The notes below the pieces were generated by a model. That model searched no databases. It worked only from the letters and a program-made list of their open reading frames with translations, and was not told the origin of the DNA. Positions 3,476 through 44,404 of a stretch of DNA of 64,000 bases are shown piece after piece. The position numbers and the translations under genes were made by a program. The stretch covers positions 12,650-76,649 of the forward strand of contig MHBE01000035.1 of NCBI GenBank assembly GCA_001803205.1. Reading direction: 5' to 3'. The stretch is from Lentisphaerae bacterium GWF2_38_69 (GTDB lineage Bacteria; Verrucomicrobiota; Lentisphaeria; Victivallales; GWF2-38-69). Each line of letters starts with the position of its first letter. The stretch's first letter is position 1.

Positions 3476-3518
3476 AACAATATCTCCTGGAATTAATTGC
3501 TTGATATTTTTCATTCCT

Positions 3519-3543
3519 GAGACACAAAATCTTGTGTCTCTAC
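3519..3543 (-). repeat. GTAG-footed REP (GTAGAGACACAAGATTTTGTGTCTC)
   Basis: GTAG tetranucleotide plus GAGACACAA/TTGTGTCTC palindrome overlapping the RAYT 3' end. Confidence 0.8.
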
Positions 3544-3782
3544 GAAATCCATATTGTATCTGTCCAGTTCCCAACTGGTTGGATTGGCTCTAATGTAGTT
3601 TCTGATATTATTCAACTCTTTATCTCTCGAAACAATGTGATCATAATAACCCTTCTGCCAGTTGAAGCAGGTGCCTTTGACTAAAGCACACTTTTTGACA
3701 CCTATCTTAAAACCTCTTATAATCGAGGGCAAATTTTTGGTTTGCGGCCCGAAATTCCCTGGCTTCCTGTCAGGAATACTTT

Positions 3783-3809
3783 GCAGAGACACAAGAGTTT
3801 GTGTCTCTC
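3783..3809 (+). repeat. REP copy embedded in-frame inside the RAYT gene
   Basis: GCAGAGACACAAGAGTTTGTGTCTCTC, encodes RETQTLVSLQ just after the HUH motif. Confidence 0.75.
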
Positions 3810-4098
3810 TGTCAGCATGACAGATTTCGATTATCCCGTGAATATGGTTTGGCATAATTACATACTCGTCAAGTTTCGCAAACGGGAAATGATCTGGAAT
3901 TTCCTTCCAGCATTTATCTACACATTTTCCAACTTCAGATAAAATCATTTTTTCATCTGATATCGACCCCAGTAGCAATTGGTGTTTCTTGACACAAATA
4001 GTTATAAAGTAGAGTCCTTCATTGGAATAATTCCAATTCTTGTATCTCACTGTCTCTATACGATATTTATTCTGATATAACATCGAATTTTATTCTTT

Positions 4099-4123
4099 GT
4101 AGAGACACAAAATCTTGTGTCTC
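4099..4123 (+). repeat. GTAG-footed REP (GTAGAGACACAAAATCTTGTGTCTC)
   Basis: Same palindrome as 3519-3543 in opposite orientation, upstream of the RAYT start. Confidence 0.8.
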
Positions 4124-4134
4124 CATAAAATAAA

Positions 4135-35670: not shown

Positions 35671-36654
35671 TCAAGAAGGTTTGAAAGTTGATATTTTTGA
35701 CAGTTCTTCATATAGTTTCTCTTCCTGAGGAGTCAGCGTCTCAGGATTAACTATTCTTACAACCAGATGCATATCGCCATATTCCTTATCTTTGCCTCTG
35801 GGGAGACCTTTTCCTTTAAGCCTTATATGCTGTCCTGACTGAATCCCCTTATCAACTCGTATTGAAGTCCTTCCCGACAGCGTCTTTACAGATATTACAC
35901 CGCCCAAAGCAGCTTCCCATGGGGAAAGTTTCAAATCAGCTTCAAGATTATAACCGTAAACTTTAAATTCAGAATGCTTTCTTAAATGAATTCTTAGATA
36001 GAGATCTCCAGGTTCCCCACCATTTATTCCCTGGTCTCCCTTGCCTTTTAGCCTTATCTTGGATCCTTCAGTAACGCCGGGAGGGATTCTCGCATTAAAT
36101 TTGCTCTCTATCGGCTGGATTCTGCGATCATGCCCCATCCCCATAACCTGATAGGTTATTGTCGCCTCTGTTCCGGAGAAAGCCTCCTCAAGGGAAATTT
36201 CAATATCTGCGTCATGATCCTGACCGTCAATTGGATAATTTCCTCTTTCTCTTCCGGAATGAAAAGATCCGGATCTCCCTGCCGCCTTTCCAAACAAGCT
36301 TTCAAAGAAATCACTGAAACCTTCAGAACCCCCAAAATCGTGATACGAATAAGTATGTGAACCAGGCCCTCTGCTATATTCGTATTGGAAGTTTTCAGCT
36401 CCCGGCGGCGGCTGAAAATCCTGTCCGCTTCTATAGTTTTGCCCCAGCTGGTTATAGCGCTTCCTCTTTTCTGGATCGCTCAACACTTCATACGCTTCGC
36501 TTATTTCCTTGAATTTATCTTCAGCGCCTGTCCCCTTGTTTATATCCGGATGGTGCTGCCTTGCCAGCTTCCTGTAAGCTTTCTTTATTTCTTCAGGAGA
36601 AGCACTTTTGTTAACTCCCAGAGAGGCGTAATAGTCTTTGTATTTTACACTCAT
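35671..36654 (-). CDS. cbpA: Curved DNA-binding DnaJ-class chaperone
   Basis: J domain with [14 protein letters not shown]-terminal DnaJ domain, no zinc finger. Confidence 0.9.
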
Positions 36655-36930
36655 AATTGCATCTATATTTCAATATTCCTTCGCAACTCCCATTCAGGAG
36701 GGCTTTTAGTTCTTATTTGATTCAATTTCCACGAGCTCACGCCCACGGCTTAAGATTTTATTCTTTTCATAGAACATTTTCAAGTCCTGCCCCCTAAAGA
36801 AATTATTATTGATTGAGCTTCAAAAAAAATTGAATATAACTTGTTGACATTTTATATGTTTCCTTTATTCTAGATGATAGCCAAGTTAAATTGTTTATAT
36901 CTTATAAACCAAGACAGGAGATATTGAAAA

Positions 36931-37458
36931 ATGAAGAGGATTCTTACCTTAGTATTCTTGATGTTTATTAGTTTGGCGCTTGCATCACAAGAGAGTGATA
37001 AAGAGGCTTATCTTAAAGACTTGAATGCTTCAAAGGATCATCAATTTAACAAGAATCAGATTAAATCTTTTGCTTTTTACTGGTTTTCTTTACATGACCG
37101 ACATGTGGACATAAACGAATCATATGAGTTTTTAGACAAGAATAATCTTTATATGGTGTTCCCTGAAATAACTGTCAGGAATCTAAAAGATTATAAAGAG
37201 TGGTATGACGGTGTCGGAAAGAACATTAAGAGCAACATCCACTATATTAGCAGAGTAAATGTTAGTTTTGATGGATCTCATAAGTACATTGTCAAAGTTC
37301 TTGTGAACTGGCAGGCGATTGATAAGGATGGCAATTTTTTAGACAAGGATGTTACACAGGAGTGGACGCTGGTAGATCCCTCATCTGATGAAGTAAAACA
37401 TCCTCTTGTTGAAAAGTATATTATTTCGAGTTTTAAGGATAAATTTCAACAAGAATAA
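36931..37458 (+). CDS. Secreted NTF2/SnoaL-like protein
   Basis: Signal peptide; WF..HD, YKEWY..HYI..V.VNWQA pattern. Confidence 0.55.
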   Translation: MKRILTLVFLMFISLALASQESDKEAYLKDLNASKDHQFNKNQIKSFAFYWFSLHDRHVDINESYEFLDKNNLYMVFPEITVRNLKDYKEWYDGVGKNIKSNIHYISRVNVSFDGSHKYIVKVLVNWQAIDKDGNFLDKDVTQEWTLVDPSSDEVKHPLVEKYIISSFKDKFQQE

Positions 37459-37475
37459 AAGTACCTGTCTATAAA

Positions 37476-38810
37476 TTAATTTTCCTTTTCGATATCAACG
37501 GCCTCTCCTATTAGAGCAGCAGCATCTTCTTTTGATAGCTTCTGAACATTCTTGAGCTTCTTTTCTATGGCTCTTGAACGGGTTCCGGCTTTCTCTATTG
37601 TGTTTGCTGCTTCCTGAAGTTTCTTCTGAGTCTTTTCAAGCACTTCACCAAAACGGCCAAACTCTGTTTTTACAGCTCCTAGAACTTCCCATACTTCACT
37701 TGATCTTTTTTCTATGGCAAGAGTTCTGAATCCCATCTGCAGGCTGCTGAGGAATGCCACAAGATTGGTCGGCCCTACAACTGTAACCTTGTATTCTCTC
37801 TGCAGAGTCTCGAAAAGTCCAGGCCTTCTTAGAACTTCAGCATAAAGTCCTTCAGTAGGGACAAACATTATGGCAAAATCGGTAGTTACAGGAGGATTGA
37901 TATATTTTTCTCTTATATCCTTGGCATTCTTTTTTATAGAGTTCTCAAATTGTTTATAAACATTGTCTATCTCTTTCTGGCTCATATTGGCAATATTTTC
38001 ATAAGCGTCAAGAAGCCTCTGGTAATCTTCTGTCGGGAATTTCGAGTCAATAGGCAAGAGAACTGATTTTTCGTCACTATTCTTGTCAGGCAGTCTGATT
38101 ACATATTCAACTCTTTCCTGGCTATCTTTTTTAATTGTCGCATTCTGCTGATACTGTTCAGGGGATAGAATCTGTTCAAGTATTGCTCCGAGCTGAATTT
38201 CTCCCATGGTTCCTCTTGTTTTGACATTTGTCAGAACCTTCTTAAGATCCCCTACCCCTGAAGCAAGGGTTTGCATTTCTCCCAATCCTTTATGTACCTG
38301 TTCCAACCTTTCGCTGATAAGTTTAAAAGATTGATTAAATCTCTTTTCCAGAGATTCCTGGAGTTTTTCATCAACTACCTTGCGCATTTCATCAAGCTTG
38401 AGAGTATTCTCTTCCCTGAGTGTCTGAAGTTTTTTCTCAATAGTCTCTCTGATTTCTTTGAGCCTTTCCTCTGTGTCTTTTTTTATCTGTTCCTGTTTTA
38501 GCAACAGATCATTAAACTTCTGTTTCTGCAGATCATTGAATTCTTTTACATTTTGTGAAAACTTATCTTCAAAGGACTTAAGAGATTTCGTTTGTTCGTC
38601 TCTATTGTCTCTGAAAGCTTTCTGACTTTCCTCCCTGTTCCTCGCGGACTCTTCCCTGAACTGATTATCAGATCTGGAGAGCCAGCCTTCAATTTTGACC
38701 AGATAGTTTTTTAATTCTTCCGAAATATCCTTTCTTCTGCTTAACAAAGTAACGATAATATTTACAACTATTAAGACTCCAATGATTACCACGGCAACTA
38801 GCATTTCCAT
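37476..38810 (-). CDS. rmuC: DNA recombination protein RmuC
   Basis: KTRGTMGE, LPIDSKFP, FAIMFVPTEGLYAE motifs; N-terminal TM and coiled coil. Confidence 0.93.
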   Translation of the reverse strand: MEMLVAVVIIGVLIVVNIIVTLLSRRKDISEELKNYLVKIEGWLSRSDNQFREESARNREESQKAFRDNRDEQTKSLKSFEDKFSQNVKEFNDLQKQKFNDLLLKQEQIKKDTEERLKEIRETIEKKLQTLREENTLKLDEMRKVVDEKLQESLEKRFNQSFKLISERLEQVHKGLGEMQTLASGVGDLKKVLTNVKTRGTMGEIQLGAILEQILSPEQYQQNATIKKDSQERVEYVIRLPDKNSDEKSVLLPIDSKFPTEDYQRLLDAYENIANMSQKEIDNVYKQFENSIKKNAKDIREKYINPPVTTDFAIMFVPTEGLYAEVLRRPGLFETLQREYKVTVVGPTNLVAFLSSLQMGFRTLAIEKRSSEVWEVLGAVKTEFGRFGEVLEKTQKKLQEAANTIEKAGTRSRAIEKKLKNVQKLSKEDAAALIGEAVDIEKEN

Positions 38811-38976
38811 AAAACTTAAACTCCAAACTTTTTATTTTTTATTATCACTCTCTGCTATTTACATAACTTATGGAATTTGGCAAGTAAATTTCTCATTTTT
38901 CTATATAATTTCGAAAACTCTGAGATTAATATCTCTGTACTGAGAGAAATAAACTACTAACTTATTTAATAAAGCT

Positions 38977-39498
38977 ATGCAGAACAAGATCAGACTTATA
39001 AAAGGCGACATAACGGGACTTAAGGTTGACGCAATAGTAAATGCCGCAAACTCTTCTCTTCTGGGCGGCGGAGGAGTAGATGGAGCTATTCATCGTTCAG
39101 GAGGCTCTCAGATACTTGAGGAATGCACACGAATAGGCGGCTGCCCGACTGGGGAAGCCGTTATTACATCAGGAGGAAAGCTTTCTGCTAAATATGTAAT
39201 ACATACAGTAGGGCCGGTTTGGCACGGGGGTAATAGGAATGAACAGCAGCTCCTGGCAAACTGTTACTCAAACAGTTTAAAATTGGCTGCAGGTAAAAGG
39301 ATACACACTATTGCCTTCCCGAATATTAGTACAGGGATTTACAGGTTTCCCAAAGAATTGGCTGCAAAAATAGCATTAGAAACAGTAAATGAATTTCTGT
39401 CTGACAATAACTCAATAAAAGAAATAATTTTTGTCTGCTTTGACGACGAGAATTATAATATCTACAAAAATCTCATTGAGAATTTAGCCTCATACTAG
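38977..39498 (+). CDS. Macrodomain O-acetyl-ADP-ribose deacetylase (YmdB-like)
   Basis: [40 protein letters not shown]. Confidence 0.93.
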
Positions 39499-39632
39499 TA
39501 GCTGTCAAAAAATAATTTCAAAATATTCAGGATTTTCAATTTGCTAATTTTTCGATTGCTGGCATCTTAATAGCTCTTGTTCATTAACGACTGATAGTCA
39601 AATATCAGTAGTAGCAATGGCAGGATCAAAGA

Positions 39633-39645
39633 GTTCTTTGAAAAC
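39633..39645 (+). promoter_or_regulatory. boxA-like antitermination signal
   Basis: GTTCTTTGAAAAC matches the boxA form found in many bacterial rRNA leaders; it lies 2 nt before the candidate RNA's closing stem. Confidence 0.6.
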
Positions 39646-39647
39646 TT

Positions 39648-40648
39648 GAGGATGTCGTGAAAGATACCGGAGCAATCCGGTAAGATCGGAAAGAGCGTCG
39701 AATTGCCCATGGGTAATTCGACAGCTGAAAGGTAATACGGTAGGCTGAGGCTTGTATCGTATTGCAAAGTCCAGGTTCGAACGCTGAAACCCGGTTCACC
39801 GGGGGAAAAGAAAGCAGCCCTTTCGAAAAGGCAGAGCGCCATGCAGCGGAAACGCTGTGATAGCAGAAGGAAGGCCGAGGTCTTCTGAAGCAGGAGCGTT
39901 CAGGACTAAAGACACTCAGCGCTAAAAATATCCAATATAAGCACTGAGATATTCCCTGACAATAGCGGACACGAGCTGTCCCGCGTGAAACCTGAAGGGA
40001 GGTTTCATAATATACGAAGTTGTAAAATTTATGTCATGCGCAGGACAATGGCGCAGCATCAGGGCAGAGGCCTTGAATTATCCCAACTCCAAAAGGTTAT
40101 GCCGAATAGCCTATATGAAAATGCAGAGAAAACTTCATATTTCATATCGAAGTAGCAAAGGCTGCGGAAAGCACCTGAGGGTGTGATAATCGAAAGATTA
40201 TCCGAGATCGGATTAGGTCTGATCTGAGGTATATCGGCTGAAGACGGTCATGGGAATTACCGAAAGAGATATCGTCCGAGAGGACAGTAAAAATTCGAAG
40301 TGTATATGACGAATGCATAAAGCAGCTCAAACAATTTTGACTTGTTTGAGAAAATGAACTAAAATGCCGGTACCCGCCGGAAAACAAGTTCGATGGCCGG
40401 CCAAATGGAAAATGGCACGCCCGGGACTAAGTCCCAAAGAGCATAATGAGGTAGTCATATACGAAGCAGCAATCGCTGTTTGAGATAGAATTAGTTTGAG
40501 ATAACATCGAAAAATTATATCTATCGGGCTGATACTAAGATATGCGCAATTAAACCGCCGCGTAAAACAGTATGAGCTTAAACTCCGATCCAAGAGCAGA
40601 GACTGTTAAATCACAGCTAACTCCCTCCTTGACTTTCACGACATCCTC
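39648..40648 (+). ncRNA. Candidate ~1 kb highly structured non-coding RNA (class unassigned)
   Basis: Perfect 16-bp end-to-end stem; many hairpins with GCAA/GAAA/GAGA loops on the + strand; no + strand ORF of 60 aa or more; more GC-rich than flanks; T8 tract right after the 3' end. Confidence 0.75.
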
Positions 40649-40729
40649 TCTTTTTTTTACAAATATCTTCCTGTAATTCTGCGAATAACCGTTTCTCTTA
40701 TTTATCTATCAGTCACCGCTTTCGTCAAA

Positions 40730-41206
40730 TCAAATGTCTGATGAAAATACGATTATATCATCTCTTTTCGCCCATCCTTCATGAGCCCAAAAATCTTCTC
40801 CTGAAACATTCGTATTCAGAACAAACAGATGGCATTTTTCTATTCCATAATTTCTCAATCCCTCTATAGATTTTTTAATAAGTTCTCTGGCAATAGCTTT
40901 TTTTCTAAATTCTTTATCTACAGCCAGGTGATAAATATAGCCTCTGCGTCCGTCATGTCCGGCAAGAACAGTTCCAATTAAATTTCCATCATTTATGCAA
41001 ACAAAACTCAAGCGTTCATTTCTCTCTAGGAATCTATTGATATTCTCTCTGGAATCGGCCAGGCTCAATGCCATTCCTTCAGTTCTCTGCCAAAGCTCAA
41101 ACGCTTTTAAATAATCTTCTATAAGCATTTCCCTAAAGATAAAATCTGTCATATTACTTTTCCTGATATTCATATAACGATCCTTTGCGTAAAATCTGCA
41201 TATCAT
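40730..41206 (-). CDS. GNAT family N-acetyltransferase
   Basis: GHDGRRGYIYHLAVDKEFRKKAIA motif; true start probably downstream of 41206. Confidence 0.9.
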   Translation of the reverse strand: MICRFYAKDRYMNIRKSNMTDFIFREMLIEDYLKAFELWQRTEGMALSLADSRENINRFLERNERLSFVCINDGNLIGTVLAGHDGRRGYIYHLAVDKEFRKKAIARELIKKSIEGLRNYGIEKCHLFVLNTNVSGEDFWAHEGWAKRDDIIVFSSDI

Positions 41207-41281
41207 ATCTCCATGTCAGTTAATATTTAATTCCATCACTTTCGTGGATCAAGCTATTTTAAAAATCCAACAATTATATTT

Positions 41282-41369
41282 TAGCCATGGGGTGAGCCTG
41301 TGGTTAAAGATATAGCTACACATTGAAGTTCTCTCGCAGGAAATCCCCTGTATGAGAGCAACGACATAT
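41282..41369 (-). repeat. Dispersed ~88-bp palindromic repeat, homologous to 57090-57177
   Basis: Reverse complement aligns with 57090-57177 (TGTCG..GCTC..CAGGG..TT.CCTG.GAGAGA.CTT ... AACCAC.GGCT...CCC.TGGCTA). Confidence 0.7.
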
Positions 41370-41496
41370 TATAAGACATATAACTATTTAAAATAAAACT
41401 TGCCATCTCACAAAATATATTATTTAAGGCTCCTTTTTCTTTGGCATGCAGGTTATCCTTAATCCACAGAATCAGTTAATCTTAAAGGTAAATAAC

Positions 41497-42642
41497 ATGA
41501 AAAGCATCCTTTTTGAAAAAGTCAGAATTGGAAAAACTGTTTTAAAAAACAGAATCTTTATGTCCGCTGCTGCTTCATATAACGGAACTACTGAAGGAGA
41601 CATTGACTATAGCGATCCAATTCTGCACTTTGATATATCCAATGGTGGTTGCGCCTTGATCCCTACAGGAGGAGTAAGCGGAATTCATCCAAGAGGTAGA
41701 AGCAATGCAACCAGACCCATGCTGAATTCTGATGAACGGATACCTTCATTTAAAAAATTTGCCGACAAGATCCATAAAGGCGGAGCTTTGGCCATACTTC
41801 AGATGACTCATGGGGGTGCCTGTGCTGCAGCTTATCAGTTCTCTATCGGCAACAGGCCTTTAAGTCCTTCGTTCTACATGAAAAATCAAAAAAAAGGTTT
41901 CAAAAAAGAAAACATCGAAAATTGCCAGGCTTCCGAGCAAGAAATTTTTGAGTTGATTTCAGCTTTCGGCGATGCGGCTGTAAGAGCAAAAAAAGCTAAC
42001 TTTGACGGAATACAGATCCATGCCGCACATGACTCACTGCTATCCCAGTGGTTTTCAACTTTATACAATTTGCGCACTGATTCCTGGGGAGGCAATGTAA
42101 AAAACCGCTGCAGACTGCACTGCGAAATTCTGAAAGAGATCAAGAATAAAACAGGTAATGAATTCCTGACAGTGCTCAAACTCGGCATAGAAGATTCTTT
42201 GCCAGGCGGAACGAAAGCTGAAGAGGGAATAGAAGCCTCAGCAATTATCGCATCACAGGGCAATACGGATATCATAGAAATAAGCCAGGGTTTACAGGAT
42301 ATAACTGATATGAATAGTACCTCTATGAAACCAAACATCAATTCTTTAGACAAAGAAGCATATTATCGAGACTGGACTAAAAGAGTAAAATCAAGGATCA
42401 AGCATAATGCCCTTGTTGTAATGCAGGGCGGTTTGAGAACTCCATCTTTAATGGAAGAAATAATAGAAAACGGCGAAGCTGATTTTGTTTCCATGTGCCG
42501 CCCGTATATAAGGGAACCGGGCATAGTCAATAGGTGGATAAGCGGAAACATGTCAAAAGCTGCATGCACTTCCTGCAATCAGTGTGCCTTCAATCATGTG
42601 TTTAAAGGCATGAGGCTAAAATGCATTTTTAATAAAGACTGA
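41497..42642 (+). CDS. NADH:flavin oxidoreductase (Old Yellow Enzyme family)
   Basis: LKNRIFMS, QMTHGG, FDGIQIHAAH, RTDSWGG, SMCRPYIREP, C-terminal CTSCNQC. Confidence 0.9.
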   Translation: MKSILFEKVRIGKTVLKNRIFMSAAASYNGTTEGDIDYSDPILHFDISNGGCALIPTGGVSGIHPRGRSNATRPMLNSDERIPSFKKFADKIHKGGALAILQMTHGGACAAAYQFSIGNRPLSPSFYMKNQKKGFKKENIENCQASEQEIFELISAFGDAAVRAKKANFDGIQIHAAHDSLLSQWFSTLYNLRTDSWGGNVKNRCRLHCEILKEIKNKTGNEFLTVLKLGIEDSLPGGTKAEEGIEASAIIASQGNTDIIEISQGLQDITDMNSTSMKPNINSLDKEAYYRDWTKRVKSRIKHNALVVMQGGLRTPSLMEEIIENGEADFVSMCRPYIREPGIVNRWISGNMSKAACTSCNQCAFNHVFKGMRLKCIFNKD

Positions 42643-42820
42643 ACTTATCAACTGCCAATAGCTATTGATGCGCTTTGAAATTATAGATCGGTTTGAGCGT
42701 ATCAATTTTTTCATCTTTTCTATTCATAACTTGTTGGAAAATAGCATCTCTATTGAAATTATCTTTCATAGTACTAAAATGGATCTAACGATATAATCCG
42801 CAAGGAAAGGGGAGGCGATA

Positions 42821-43717
42821 ATGAGAAATGTAGTAAGGGTTCTATTCTTTTTAATTCTGACATTTTACTGTGTCTTATCTTATTCCGAACAGGTAAATGT
42901 CTATGTTCTGAACACAGGAGACATACATGAATCTTCGAAATATCTAAAAAAAATAAAATCTTATGTAGATATAACGAGAACCAACCATCCTGGTTGTGTG
43001 ATTTTGCTCGATGCAGGAGACATGCTTACCCAATTCCCTTTTTCAAAATATGTTTCACCACAGGATCGTAAAACCCGTGACTTGGCATCAACTACGCCAA
43101 AGGGTGAAAAGATGCTCGAATGGGCATCAACAATGAAATATGACGCCATACTCATAGGAAATCATGATATGATTGCTGGAGCAAATATTCTGCAGAAGCT
43201 CCTGAACAGATATAACCTTCCTTTAATAGCCGCTAACCTTAGCCATCCCAGCCTGTACCTTTCTAGATACAAAATAGTGCAATTAAACTTTCGTCTTAAA
43301 ACAGGCAAAGCTGTTTCTATCAGGGTCGGAATAATAGGAATATCCGATCAAGACCAGAAGGATTATCATTTCCCGAATAAAGCCGATAAGGAAAAATTAA
43401 AAACTTATCCTGTTTACAATCCAACCATAAATAAGATAATAGATGAAGTTGCTAAACAATCAGACTTTATTATTCTCTTGAGCCATAACTGGGATAATGT
43501 TGACAGAGACTCTGTTTCAGCTCTGAAGAGTAACAAAATATGCGCAATCATCGGCGGGCACTCTCATAAACTTCTAAATGAAAAGGACAATGGAAAAACC
43601 CTAATCAAATCCGGTGTCCACGGAAGCAATGTCGGCTGCACAAAAATAACATGGGATAGCGATGCACATAAAGTATTAACGGTAACTGCCGAGAATAAAC
43701 CGATGAAGGAGGAATAA
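42821..43717 (+). CDS. Secreted metallophosphoesterase (5'-nucleotidase N-terminal domain only)
   Basis: Signal peptide; DIHE, DAGD, GNHD, LSH, GGHSH motifs; no C-terminal 5'-NT domain. Confidence 0.8.
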   Translation: MRNVVRVLFFLILTFYCVLSYSEQVNVYVLNTGDIHESSKYLKKIKSYVDITRTNHPGCVILLDAGDMLTQFPFSKYVSPQDRKTRDLASTTPKGEKMLEWASTMKYDAILIGNHDMIAGANILQKLLNRYNLPLIAANLSHPSLYLSRYKIVQLNFRLKTGKAVSIRVGIIGISDQDQKDYHFPNKADKEKLKTYPVYNPTINKIIDEVAKQSDFIILLSHNWDNVDRDSVSALKSNKICAIIGGHSHKLLNEKDNGKTLIKSGVHGSNVGCTKITWDSDAHKVLTVTAENKPMKEE

Positions 43718-44404
43718 ATGAAGAAATATTTACTTTTCATTTTTATATTATTAACTGGTTTTATAACTTCTGCTCTTGCCGATACATCAGAGCAAATCTA
43801 TTTTTTAGCCATGGATCTGCCGCAGGATACAGATCAAAGCATAGTAAATGACTGTCAGATAAAAATCAGGGAATTAATAAAGAAAAATGCGCCGGAATAT
43901 ACGGACAAAATTCTTTATCACACTCCTGACAATATCCATATCAGCCTCATACGATTTAACGAAATACATCCTGACGCTCTCTTGAGGAATTATATCCAGC
44001 TCTTCAAAAATGATGCCAGGTATCTTCCCGACAGAAACATCGCAAATAAAATAAGAGATGCAAGATTAAATGTAACTCATACTGGTTTTATCGTTTACGA
44101 ATTCCCTGAACCTGTTACTCTCACTAAATTTGTAAATATTCTTTTGAATGACCTTAAGAAAAATAAATTATATTATAAAGATTCTGACTTTAATGAAGGA
44201 GGAAAAATATACCCTCACTTCAGTGTAGGATATTTCAATCCAAACGAAGTCAGCGTTGATACAATGAAAGAGATACTTAAAGGCAAAGTCTCGGCGCCGA
44301 AATGCAACTCTTTTCGCCTTAATGAGTTTATTTTAATGCATTCTGAAAAGCTTACAAAACCTCTTACATACAGCAGAGTCTATACTTTTAAAAAACCTAA
44401 ATAA
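43718..44404 (+). CDS. Secreted 2H phosphoesterase-like protein
   Basis: Signal peptide; two HxS motifs (HISL, PHFSV) about 90 aa apart; YFLAMDLP N-terminal strand. Confidence 0.65.
   Translation: MKKYLLFIFILLTGFITSALADTSEQIYFLAMDLPQDTDQSIVNDCQIKIRELIKKNAPEYTDKILYHTPDNIHISLIRFNEIHPDALLRNYIQLFKNDARYLPDRNIANKIRDARLNVTHTGFIVYEFPEPVTLTKFVNILLNDLKKNKLYYKDSDFNEGGKIYPHFSVGYFNPNEVSVDTMKEILKGKVSAPKCNSFRLNEFILMHSEKLTKPLTYSRVYTFKKPK

Follow-up and report, generated by a model that had tools for sequence, protein, structure and literature searches.

Apart from ribosomal RNA (rRNA), very few bacterial RNAs exceeding 500 nucleotides (nt) in length are known. RNase P, group II introns, OLE, GOLLD and ROOL have each opened a line of work, and GOLLD and ROOL are typically associated with phages or tRNAs. 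GOLLD and ROOL are described as large ornate bacterial RNAs which form RNA-only multimers (10.1101/2024.12.08.627333; PMC12585600), and OLE as an RNA of about 600 nt belonging to a membrane-associated ribonucleoprotein (RNP) in Bacillota (PMC9723947, PMC10898510, PMC12265935). The locus presented here lies in a 64-kb stretch of contig MHBE01000035.1 (the window, i.e. the whole stretch of DNA that was analysed) from Lentisphaerae bacterium GWF2_38_69, of the order Victivallales (Lentisphaerota, in the Planctomycetes-Verrucomicrobia-Chlamydiae (PVC) group), the DNA of which came from a groundwater metagenome. We read positions 39633-40658 on the + strand, with a probability of roughly 0.7, as a stand-alone gene for a highly structured, stable non-coding RNA of ~1.0 kb whose family is absent from Rfam 15. 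That the locus encodes a real, structured and independently transcribed non-coding RNA of an undescribed family is very likely; the RNA is probably abundant, and it looks like a candidate new class of large bacterial RNA.

An initial annotation, made from the sequence alone, had pointed out a framed, hairpin-rich element at this place, and all 14 of the strings and coordinates it quoted agree with the window: the two arms of the inverted repeat, eight hairpins, the long-range strands 39769-39785 and 39895-39906, the boxA-like GTTCTTTGAAAAC at 39633-39645 and TCTTTTTTTT after the 3' arm. Its suggestion that the DNA comes from a PVC organism was also correct. The inverted repeat of 16 base pairs (bp) is exact, 39648-39663 (5' arm of the terminal stalk) being the reverse complement of 40633-40648 (3' arm), with eight T behind it. 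Together with the flanking A-run and T-run it forms the pair listed as I4 (39641-39663 with 40633-40655, 23 nt, 87% complementary), one of only 10 inverted pairs of at least 14 nt within 1500 nt in the whole window. The U-tract directly behind the stalk (TC followed by T8, 40649-40658) is the presumed termination point, and the structured core (39664-40632) comprises ~40 helices in several domains. The minimum free energy (MFE) of 39648-40648 is -356.8 kcal/mol on the + strand, compared with -263.8 +/- 8.0 for 40 dinucleotide shuffles (z = -11.6), which places the + strand well beyond the shuffles; the corresponding z for the - strand is -6.2.

In the assembly that contains the window (G000, 3.12 Mb in 66 contigs), the first ~29 bases of the element are found again on two further contigs, both of which turned out to carry full copies with the same layout: a promoter-like block, GTTCTTTGAAAAT, GAGGATGTCGTGAA, about 1 kb of sequence, TTCACGACATCCT and a T-run. 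From boxA to T-run the three copies measure 1026 nt (window), 1120 nt and 1052 nt; they are 50-59% identical among themselves, the window copy being 50-55% identical to the other two. Another genome of the genus, G001, is complete; its three copies measure 1126-1162 nt, each has a gene context of its own, and two are 99.7% identical to each other. In G002, a congener with a fragmented assembly, at least four distinct 3' ends were found, most of them at the edges of contigs. A scan of metagenome contigs (Joint Genome Institute, JGI) with a 25-nt leader pattern returned 19 contigs, and the pattern is found at three places on a 3.08-Mb chromosome in record OZ245791.1 ("MAG: Victivallales bacterium"). 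By sequence identity the copies fall into a window type (the window copy, L048 and L052, 78-79% identical), an L002 type, an L003 type, an L004 type and two singletons, with subtypes common to different species. Flanking genes differ at every copy, and a T-run lies behind the 3' arm in all six genomic copies from the window's genus (g1). At G000:C56:2850-2935 (about 1501-1590 of L021) there is in addition a ~90-nt 3' remnant of an L002-type copy, which retains the T-run and, altered at one position, the 3' arm, and upstream of which AT-rich DNA stands in place of the remaining RNA; it may be a decayed fourth copy.

Covariation was assessed on an alignment (A5) of 19 non-redundant full-length sequences, from which L043 (the same as L003), L050 (the same as L002), the fragments L044, L049 and L053, and L006 (99.7% identical to L004) were omitted. 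RNAalifold predicted 135 pairs for these homologs, 96 of them with compensatory changes. A consensus fold of 239 pairs in 41 helices was then made with the terminal stalk as a forced constraint. Standard pairs occupy 89.2% of its 4353 cells; shifting the 3' partners by 1-3 columns (the slid controls) lowers this to 33.5-38.2%, and column shuffling to 78.5%. Two-sided changes are seen in 150 of the 239 pairs (90.6 +/- 4.6 in shuffles, none of 500 reaching the observed value), and the covariation score is 0.386, compared with 0.208 for shuffled and 0.065-0.101 for slid alignments. The structure was derived from the same 19 sequences and is thus favoured against the slid controls, but the gap to the controls and the per-pair counts far exceed the bias that this introduces. 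Covariation, the absence of which would have refuted the initial annotation by its own terms, is strong, and it is unusually rich because each genome carries several diverged paralogs. Such divergence with a conserved architecture suggests selection on shape rather than on sequence.

Several long-range helices are well supported. The multibranch domain at 39775-39907, whose closing pairing had been proposed from the window alone, is closed by 39775-39785 with 39895-39907 (helix 9), which covariation supports; it has 12 pairs, 96% of cells are paired and one pair changes from CG to UA in seven sequences. A large central domain (39951-40258; helices 15, 16 and 22) is closed by 39951-39960 with 40247-40258 and includes the well-supported helix 40100-40112 with 40227-40239; helix 22 has two-sided changes in 8 of its 12 pairs. 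The domain at 40302-40462 is closed by 40302-40310 with 40454-40462 (helix 33, two-sided changes in all nine pairs) and 40316-40325 with 40439-40448 (helix 34, six of eight pairs). A further well-supported long-range helix, 40527-40539 with 40567-40578, belongs to the 3' domain (40424-40585), which holds AUGAGGUAG and GAGAUAACAUC. Among homologs long enough to include the terminal stalk (helix 1), pairing in it amounts to 99.4%, and two of its pairs covary. When the fold is left unconstrained, RNAalifold pairs the leader (columns 13-24) with GAGAUAACAUC instead of forming the stalk; this run is biased because several sequences lack the 3' arm, and all nine pairs of the alternative are invariant or one-sided, so it was rejected as unsupported. 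GAGAUAACAUC (40503-40508) contains ACAUC, as does the 3' arm, and can in this way pair with GAUGU of the 5' arm (39652-39656). No covariation for or against this pairing was seen in the alignment; it may represent an intermediate of folding or have arisen by coincidence.

GNRA loops and A-rich unpaired positions are hallmarks of compactly folded large RNAs. The bias of GNRA loops towards the + strand, proposed at the outset, was borne out: the window element has nine GNRA tetraloop hairpins on the + strand and one on the - strand, and the three sequences counted have 9-11 and 0-2, respectively (mostly GAAA). Of the unpaired positions, 47.5% are A, and G-U pairs are frequent. The GNRA counts and the A-rich unpaired positions thus fix the + strand, and the GAAA tetraloops with A-rich linkers point to a compact tertiary fold. 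Short open reading frames (ORFs) occur on both strands (e.g. 56 and 51 amino acids on the + strand), but those of at least 35 amino acids sit at differing alignment columns in the 19 homologs and homolog L056 has none on the + strand, so that the absence of a credible ORF holds. Compensatory substitutions thus keep a structure in which no ORF is conserved, as is characteristic of a structured non-coding RNA.

The signals around the element resemble those of rRNA operons. A promoter-like block (AAAATATT..TTTGCTA..CTGGCA.CTTAAT, 39520-39572, recognised by conservation only) precedes it; in the form TTGATTTGCTA..CTGGCA.CTTAAT it is conserved in the three paralogs of G000 and the three copies of G001, and it is similar to the sequence preceding 16S in the G001 rRNA operon. 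A leader from the presumed start site to boxA follows (39573-39632). The boxA-like element is present in all full g1-type copies, where GTTCTTTGAAAA(T/C) stands 2 nt before the stalk. Several copies begin with GTTCTTTGAAAAT, which agrees at 14 of 14 bases with the boxA-like element in the 16S-23S spacer of G001, and the boxA reading gains support because these bases are identical in the rRNA spacer of a congener; binding of NusB/NusE is predicted. A further shared motif (..TGAGGC.., followed by an A/T-rich run such as AAATAAAA.TTATTTTTA) was seen ~60-100 nt before the promoter block in RNA genes of both genera (about 1355-1400 of L004, L005 and L006; upstream of L003 on the - strand; upstream of L036, L037, L040 and L042), and may be a UP-like or factor-binding element.

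Parts of the window are also present in RNA libraries. Fifteen RNA-labelled runs from many studies contain parts of it, and four of these runs were compared in detail (X4, X6, X7 and X11); the shares in the other runs are small and are no evidence of expression or habitat. X7 has an 805-nt contig on 39597-40400 (26 differences), the longest and the one which begins furthest upstream, together with a 190-nt contig on 40407-40596. X11 has three contigs between 39657 and 40646, X6 has two 151-nt contigs, one ending at 40639, and X4, a library of doubtful kind, has three contigs, of which two match exactly and the third comes from a relative. As for the transcript that the initial annotation predicted, contigs of RNA-labelled libraries (the RNA-Seq libraries X6, X7 and X11, plus the doubtful X4) do cover 39597-40646, at 95-100% identity. 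The contig ends at 40646 (X11) and 40639 (X6) are not one place, so no 3' end is claimed from them; and although none of the four runs has a contig on 39000-39538 or 40694-41300, this was counted as no evidence. Relative to the window, the X7 and X11 contigs carry 31 substitutions, of which, in the MFE structure, 17 are at unpaired positions, 11 keep a pair and 3 break one, a pattern which agrees with the fold and is supportive but weak, as it depends on the predicted fold. The contig of a relative in X4 (821 nt) matches 39884-39935 and 40245-40265, with 299 other letters replacing the intervening 309, and represents a relative or paralog in which the central domain has been exchanged. Among the 19 metagenome contigs, 13 are 1043-1169 nt long and start 2-52 nt before TTTGAAA, without promoter block or downstream DNA; ten of them end in the 3' arm and three shortly before it, as assembled transcripts would.

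BLAST searches with the window RNA in 41 genomes of the order returned only the RNA itself and leader matches of 27-29 nt (2 of the 41 genomes), and those with the L005 copy gave matches in 3 of the 41, all from the window's genus. Because the reach of BLAST was limited to the genus, covariance models were used. Model R1, representing the 3' domain and built from the window's genus only, matches 5 of 10 genomes of the family f1, including weak hits in genus g6 (E values of 3.5e-4 and 1.6e-3). Model R2 takes in two g6 matches (L027 and L028), whose R2 scores are partly given by construction, while the other g6 and g5 copies are independent. Under strict filters, where a missing match means not found rather than absent, R2 matches 7 of 151 genomes in the order sample (G000 and six of the nine other f1 genomes; none of the 141 in eleven other families) and 3 of 151 in the phylum sample, all from f1 (none of the 146 outside it). 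A 28-nt motif of the g5 and g6 relatives, allowing at most two mismatches, occurs in 4 of 251 genomes, all f1, and its reversed control in none; nor do viral contigs contain any match to the RNA. As far as searched, the family is limited to one Victivallales family. Sequence likeness between g1 and the g5/g6 relatives is confined to the 3' domain, where all reciprocal nhmmer matches lie, on the + strand and with E values down to 2.6e-5. Judging from cuts made by eye, these relatives have either a short form (~660-790 nt, with the T-run directly behind the stalk) or a two-domain form (~1.15-1.3 kb), and 1-4 copies were detected per genome. At two loci from two g6 genomes (L028, about 1820-2105, and L037, about 2487-2785), a gene which, as read by eye, encodes a small RRM-type RNA-binding protein with a glycine/arginine-rich tail lies directly downstream on the same strand.

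Several results weigh against the interpretation of the locus as a boxA-led gene for a stable RNA. What the libraries provide are contigs and not reads, which give neither strand, ends nor level of the RNA, and DNA may be present in RNA libraries; the size of the element-long metagenome contigs could in part stem from assemblies that broke off where paralogs have conserved ends. Covariation is of little help for the terminal stalk, because its sequence hardly varies (9 of 14 pairs are invariant). A sigma-70 consensus scan of 39400-40800 listed 11 sites and the promoter-like block is not among them. The boxA 11-mer is not rare, with 10 matches in G000 compared with 7 for the control (13 and 2, respectively, in G001). 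The g5 and g6 relatives lack the boxA leader, so that the family as a whole cannot depend on antitermination. Among the neighbours, no conserved gene was seen that would point directly to a function. Finally, no local terminator hairpin was found on the + strand in 39400-40800, all three listed sites being on the - strand, and it is for this reason that the stalk formed between the 5' and 3' ends is taken as the terminator stem.

For the window's genus, we lean towards a model in which boxA and the stalk act together. Transcription would start from the rRNA-like promoter, and boxA, 2 nt before the 5' arm, would recruit the Nus antitermination complex. In the antitermination complex of rRNA, Nus factors bound to boxA remain attached to the polymerase and keep the 5' leader close to its exit channel; here, the complex may shield the long untranslated transcript from Rho and keep the 5' arm near the polymerase, and the hold on the leader would thus deliver the 5' arm to the emerging 3' arm. 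Once the latter has emerged, the two ends could pair into the 16-bp stalk (23 bp if the A-run of boxA pairs with the U-tail), which with the U-tract directly behind it would serve as an intrinsic terminator stem and possibly as an RNase III site.

As to its role, the RNA may be the scaffold of an abundant RNP or RNA-only particle, comparable in kind to OLE, ROOL and GOLLD; this analogy is offered tentatively, at somewhat less than even odds. More speculative, and rather unlikely as a whole, is the fuller picture in which these RNAs form the core of a new, highly abundant particle specific to one lineage within the Lentisphaerota, either an RNA-only multimer or a catalytic or organising RNP, in which paralog types A, B, C and D co-assemble or specialise, the ribosomal antitermination machinery is borrowed to join the RNA ends, and correct closure of the 5'-3' fold is itself the termination signal. 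The alternative which survives best is that of an abundant regulatory decoy or sponge which, like 6S or CsrB/RsmZ, would titrate either RNA polymerase or an RNA-binding protein, for instance of the RRM, Hfq or CsrA type, with the paralogs providing graded or condition-specific control. Strong rRNA-like expression signals and several paralogs would suit such an RNA, and the many alike GAAA hairpins with A-rich linkers could be repeated binding sites; apart from GNRA, however, no short motif stands out as repeated in the loops, and the long-range helices kept by covariation and the multi-domain architecture exceed the needs of a string of binding hairpins. The RRM-type gene beside the two g6 relatives also fits a decoy, but represents perhaps one orthologous locus only and is not in the window's genus. 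The Rfam model of 6S finds nothing in G000, G001 or G007, which also speaks for a decoy, but the same model matches only 5 of 14 reference genomes in the control, perhaps because it is narrow, and the miss means little. A decoy is thus improbable, though not negligibly so, and any probability left beside it and the scaffold falls to other roles.

The second alternative, that the RNA is a very divergent member of a described large class (GOLLD, ROOL, OLE, HEARO, raiA or a group I/II intron remnant) for which the Rfam models are too narrow, was addressed with the 4227 models of Rfam 15, judging matches at the gathering score; the set presumably includes these families together with RNase P, tmRNA, 6S and the small and large subunit rRNAs. 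No match at that score was found in the 64-kb window, in L002 and L003 or in L004-L006, and the sole one in the distant relatives L027 and L028 is a neighbouring RNase P gene. With E values up to 10 and lax filters, 39400-40800 gave four chance-level matches to unrelated small families, far below the gathering score, and no large-RNA family. The locus thus remains unrecognised as rRNA, tmRNA, RNase P or intron, as had been stated before, and the suggested kinship with GOLLD or an RNA called MISL found no support from any covariance model (for MISL, provided that Rfam 15 includes it). Within the covered full texts, no paper describing an RNA motif of the name MISL was found (one RNA paper holds only "misleadingly"), a 2017 survey of 224 motifs has no occurrence of it, and no published description of the present RNA was found, supplements and subscription journals being outside that coverage; of the options offered initially, that of a new class is the one in keeping with these results. 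The RNA does share its look with the described classes (large, hairpin-rich, with many GNRA loops), and covariance models can miss distant members, but five paralog or ortholog loci and two distant relatives would have to be missed likewise, and the context is neither phage nor tRNA. We consider this explanation very unlikely. Other known origins were also rejected: a giant version of a universal RNA (normal RNase P and signal recognition particle RNA genes are present elsewhere, a tmRNA was seen by eye in G001, and two complete 16S and 23S genes of that genome are likewise located away from the RNA), mimicry of rRNA segments (apart from boxA, the only blastn-short matches to the G001 rRNA operon were 12-13 nt long and at chance level) and, given the absence of matches in viral contigs, a phage origin.

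Slightly less probable again is a non-autonomous element resembling a miniature inverted-repeat transposable element (MITE), or another selfish repeat, with the inverted repeats as sites for a transposase and the structure arising only as a by-product. The exact inverted repeat of 16 bp at the termini, several copies per genome, the two nearly identical G001 copies and the remnant on C56 are what such an element might leave. The copies within a genome are however strongly diverged, yet compensatory changes keep the pairs, which therefore indicates selection on the RNA and not transposition. In G001 the start of the duplicated unit is not at the inverted repeat but some 150 nt before it, within the promoter region; no target-site duplication was seen by eye at six genomic copies; and subtypes are common to different species, with only 3-5 copies per genome. 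The many copies with target-site duplications that would have identified a MITE are thus replaced by three full copies in G000, each with its own promoter block and T-run. The weakest alternative, a long 5' or 3' untranslated region, cis-regulatory leader or small-protein transcript, could draw on the short ORFs and on the upstream Macro gene being on the same strand, but is set aside as most improbable in view of the lack of any conserved ORF position, the T-run which ends the element, the opposite strand of the next gene and the different flanking genes at every copy.

We return to the reading of the locus as a stand-alone RNA gene. In the window, its flanking genes are Macro, GNAT, RmuC and an OYE-type reductase, and there is no tRNA or tmRNA in 36000-44000. 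The Macro-gene ortholog in G001 is in another context, an HD-domain-like ORF and then tmRNA following, and no clear ortholog of the GNAT neighbour was found, so that this comparison of synteny and empty sites does not bear on insertion. The G001 region concerned (L065, G001:C1:595179-598691) contains the Macro ortholog, the HD-domain-like ORF, the tmRNA (by eye, with GGGG..CCACCA ends) and an integrase-like ORF, and its tmRNA/integrase arrangement is typical of an integration hot spot, unrelated to the RNA. Elsewhere in the window, the 22-bp palindrome GAGACACAAAATCTTGTGTCTC and its variants occur in three copies at 3504-4131 (spacing of 267 and 316 nt), which may serve as operators or form recurrent hairpins in the gaps between small genes.

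With a size of about 1.0-1.3 kb, rRNA-style expression signals and its occurrence in environmental RNA libraries, the family shows that poorly cultured PVC lineages hold large RNAs missed by current model libraries. Its diverged paralogs with conserved architecture make it unusually apt for structure determination (by cryo-EM, or as a target for RNP purification), and it is a natural system in which to ask whether long RNAs other than rRNA are helped by the boxA/Nus complex in closing their 5' and 3' ends.

Compared with known systems, the RNA shares with decoys of the 6S and CsrB type what we infer to be an abundant, stand-alone and stable non-coding transcript with its own promoter and terminator, but it is at least five times larger and multi-domain with long-range helices, and is neither a rod with a bubble nor a chain of GGA hairpins. 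Its framing is closest to that of rRNA operon transcripts: the promoter block resembles that of the same-genus rRNA operon, boxA is that of the 16S-23S spacer, a long stalk made of the paired 5' and 3' flanks encloses the whole RNA, and unpaired regions are A-rich with common GNRA loops. Unlike rRNA, it has no similarity to the small or large subunit models, stands alone as a 1-kb gene without tRNA or 5S, has a stalk directly preceding a U-tract, and its paralogs are strongly diverged rather than homogenised. OLE is likewise a large, highly structured and well-conserved non-coding RNA, probably particle-based, whose biochemical function is not established; it differs in belonging to another phylum, and the window RNA has no match to its model, is multi-copy, measures about 1.0-1.16 kb in its genus and has no conserved partner genes that were found beside it. 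The association with phages or tRNA clusters typical of GOLLD and ROOL was not found for the window RNA, which is chromosomal with housekeeping neighbours, has no match to their models or in viral contigs, and sets itself apart by several diverged paralogs, the rRNA-type framing by boxA and stalk, and its confinement to one Victivallales family. With GOLLD and ROOL it nevertheless shares the size class of several hundred to about 1000 nt, a multi-helix structure backed by covariation and a function that is not established, and, like them, it is plausibly a self-contained folded particle.

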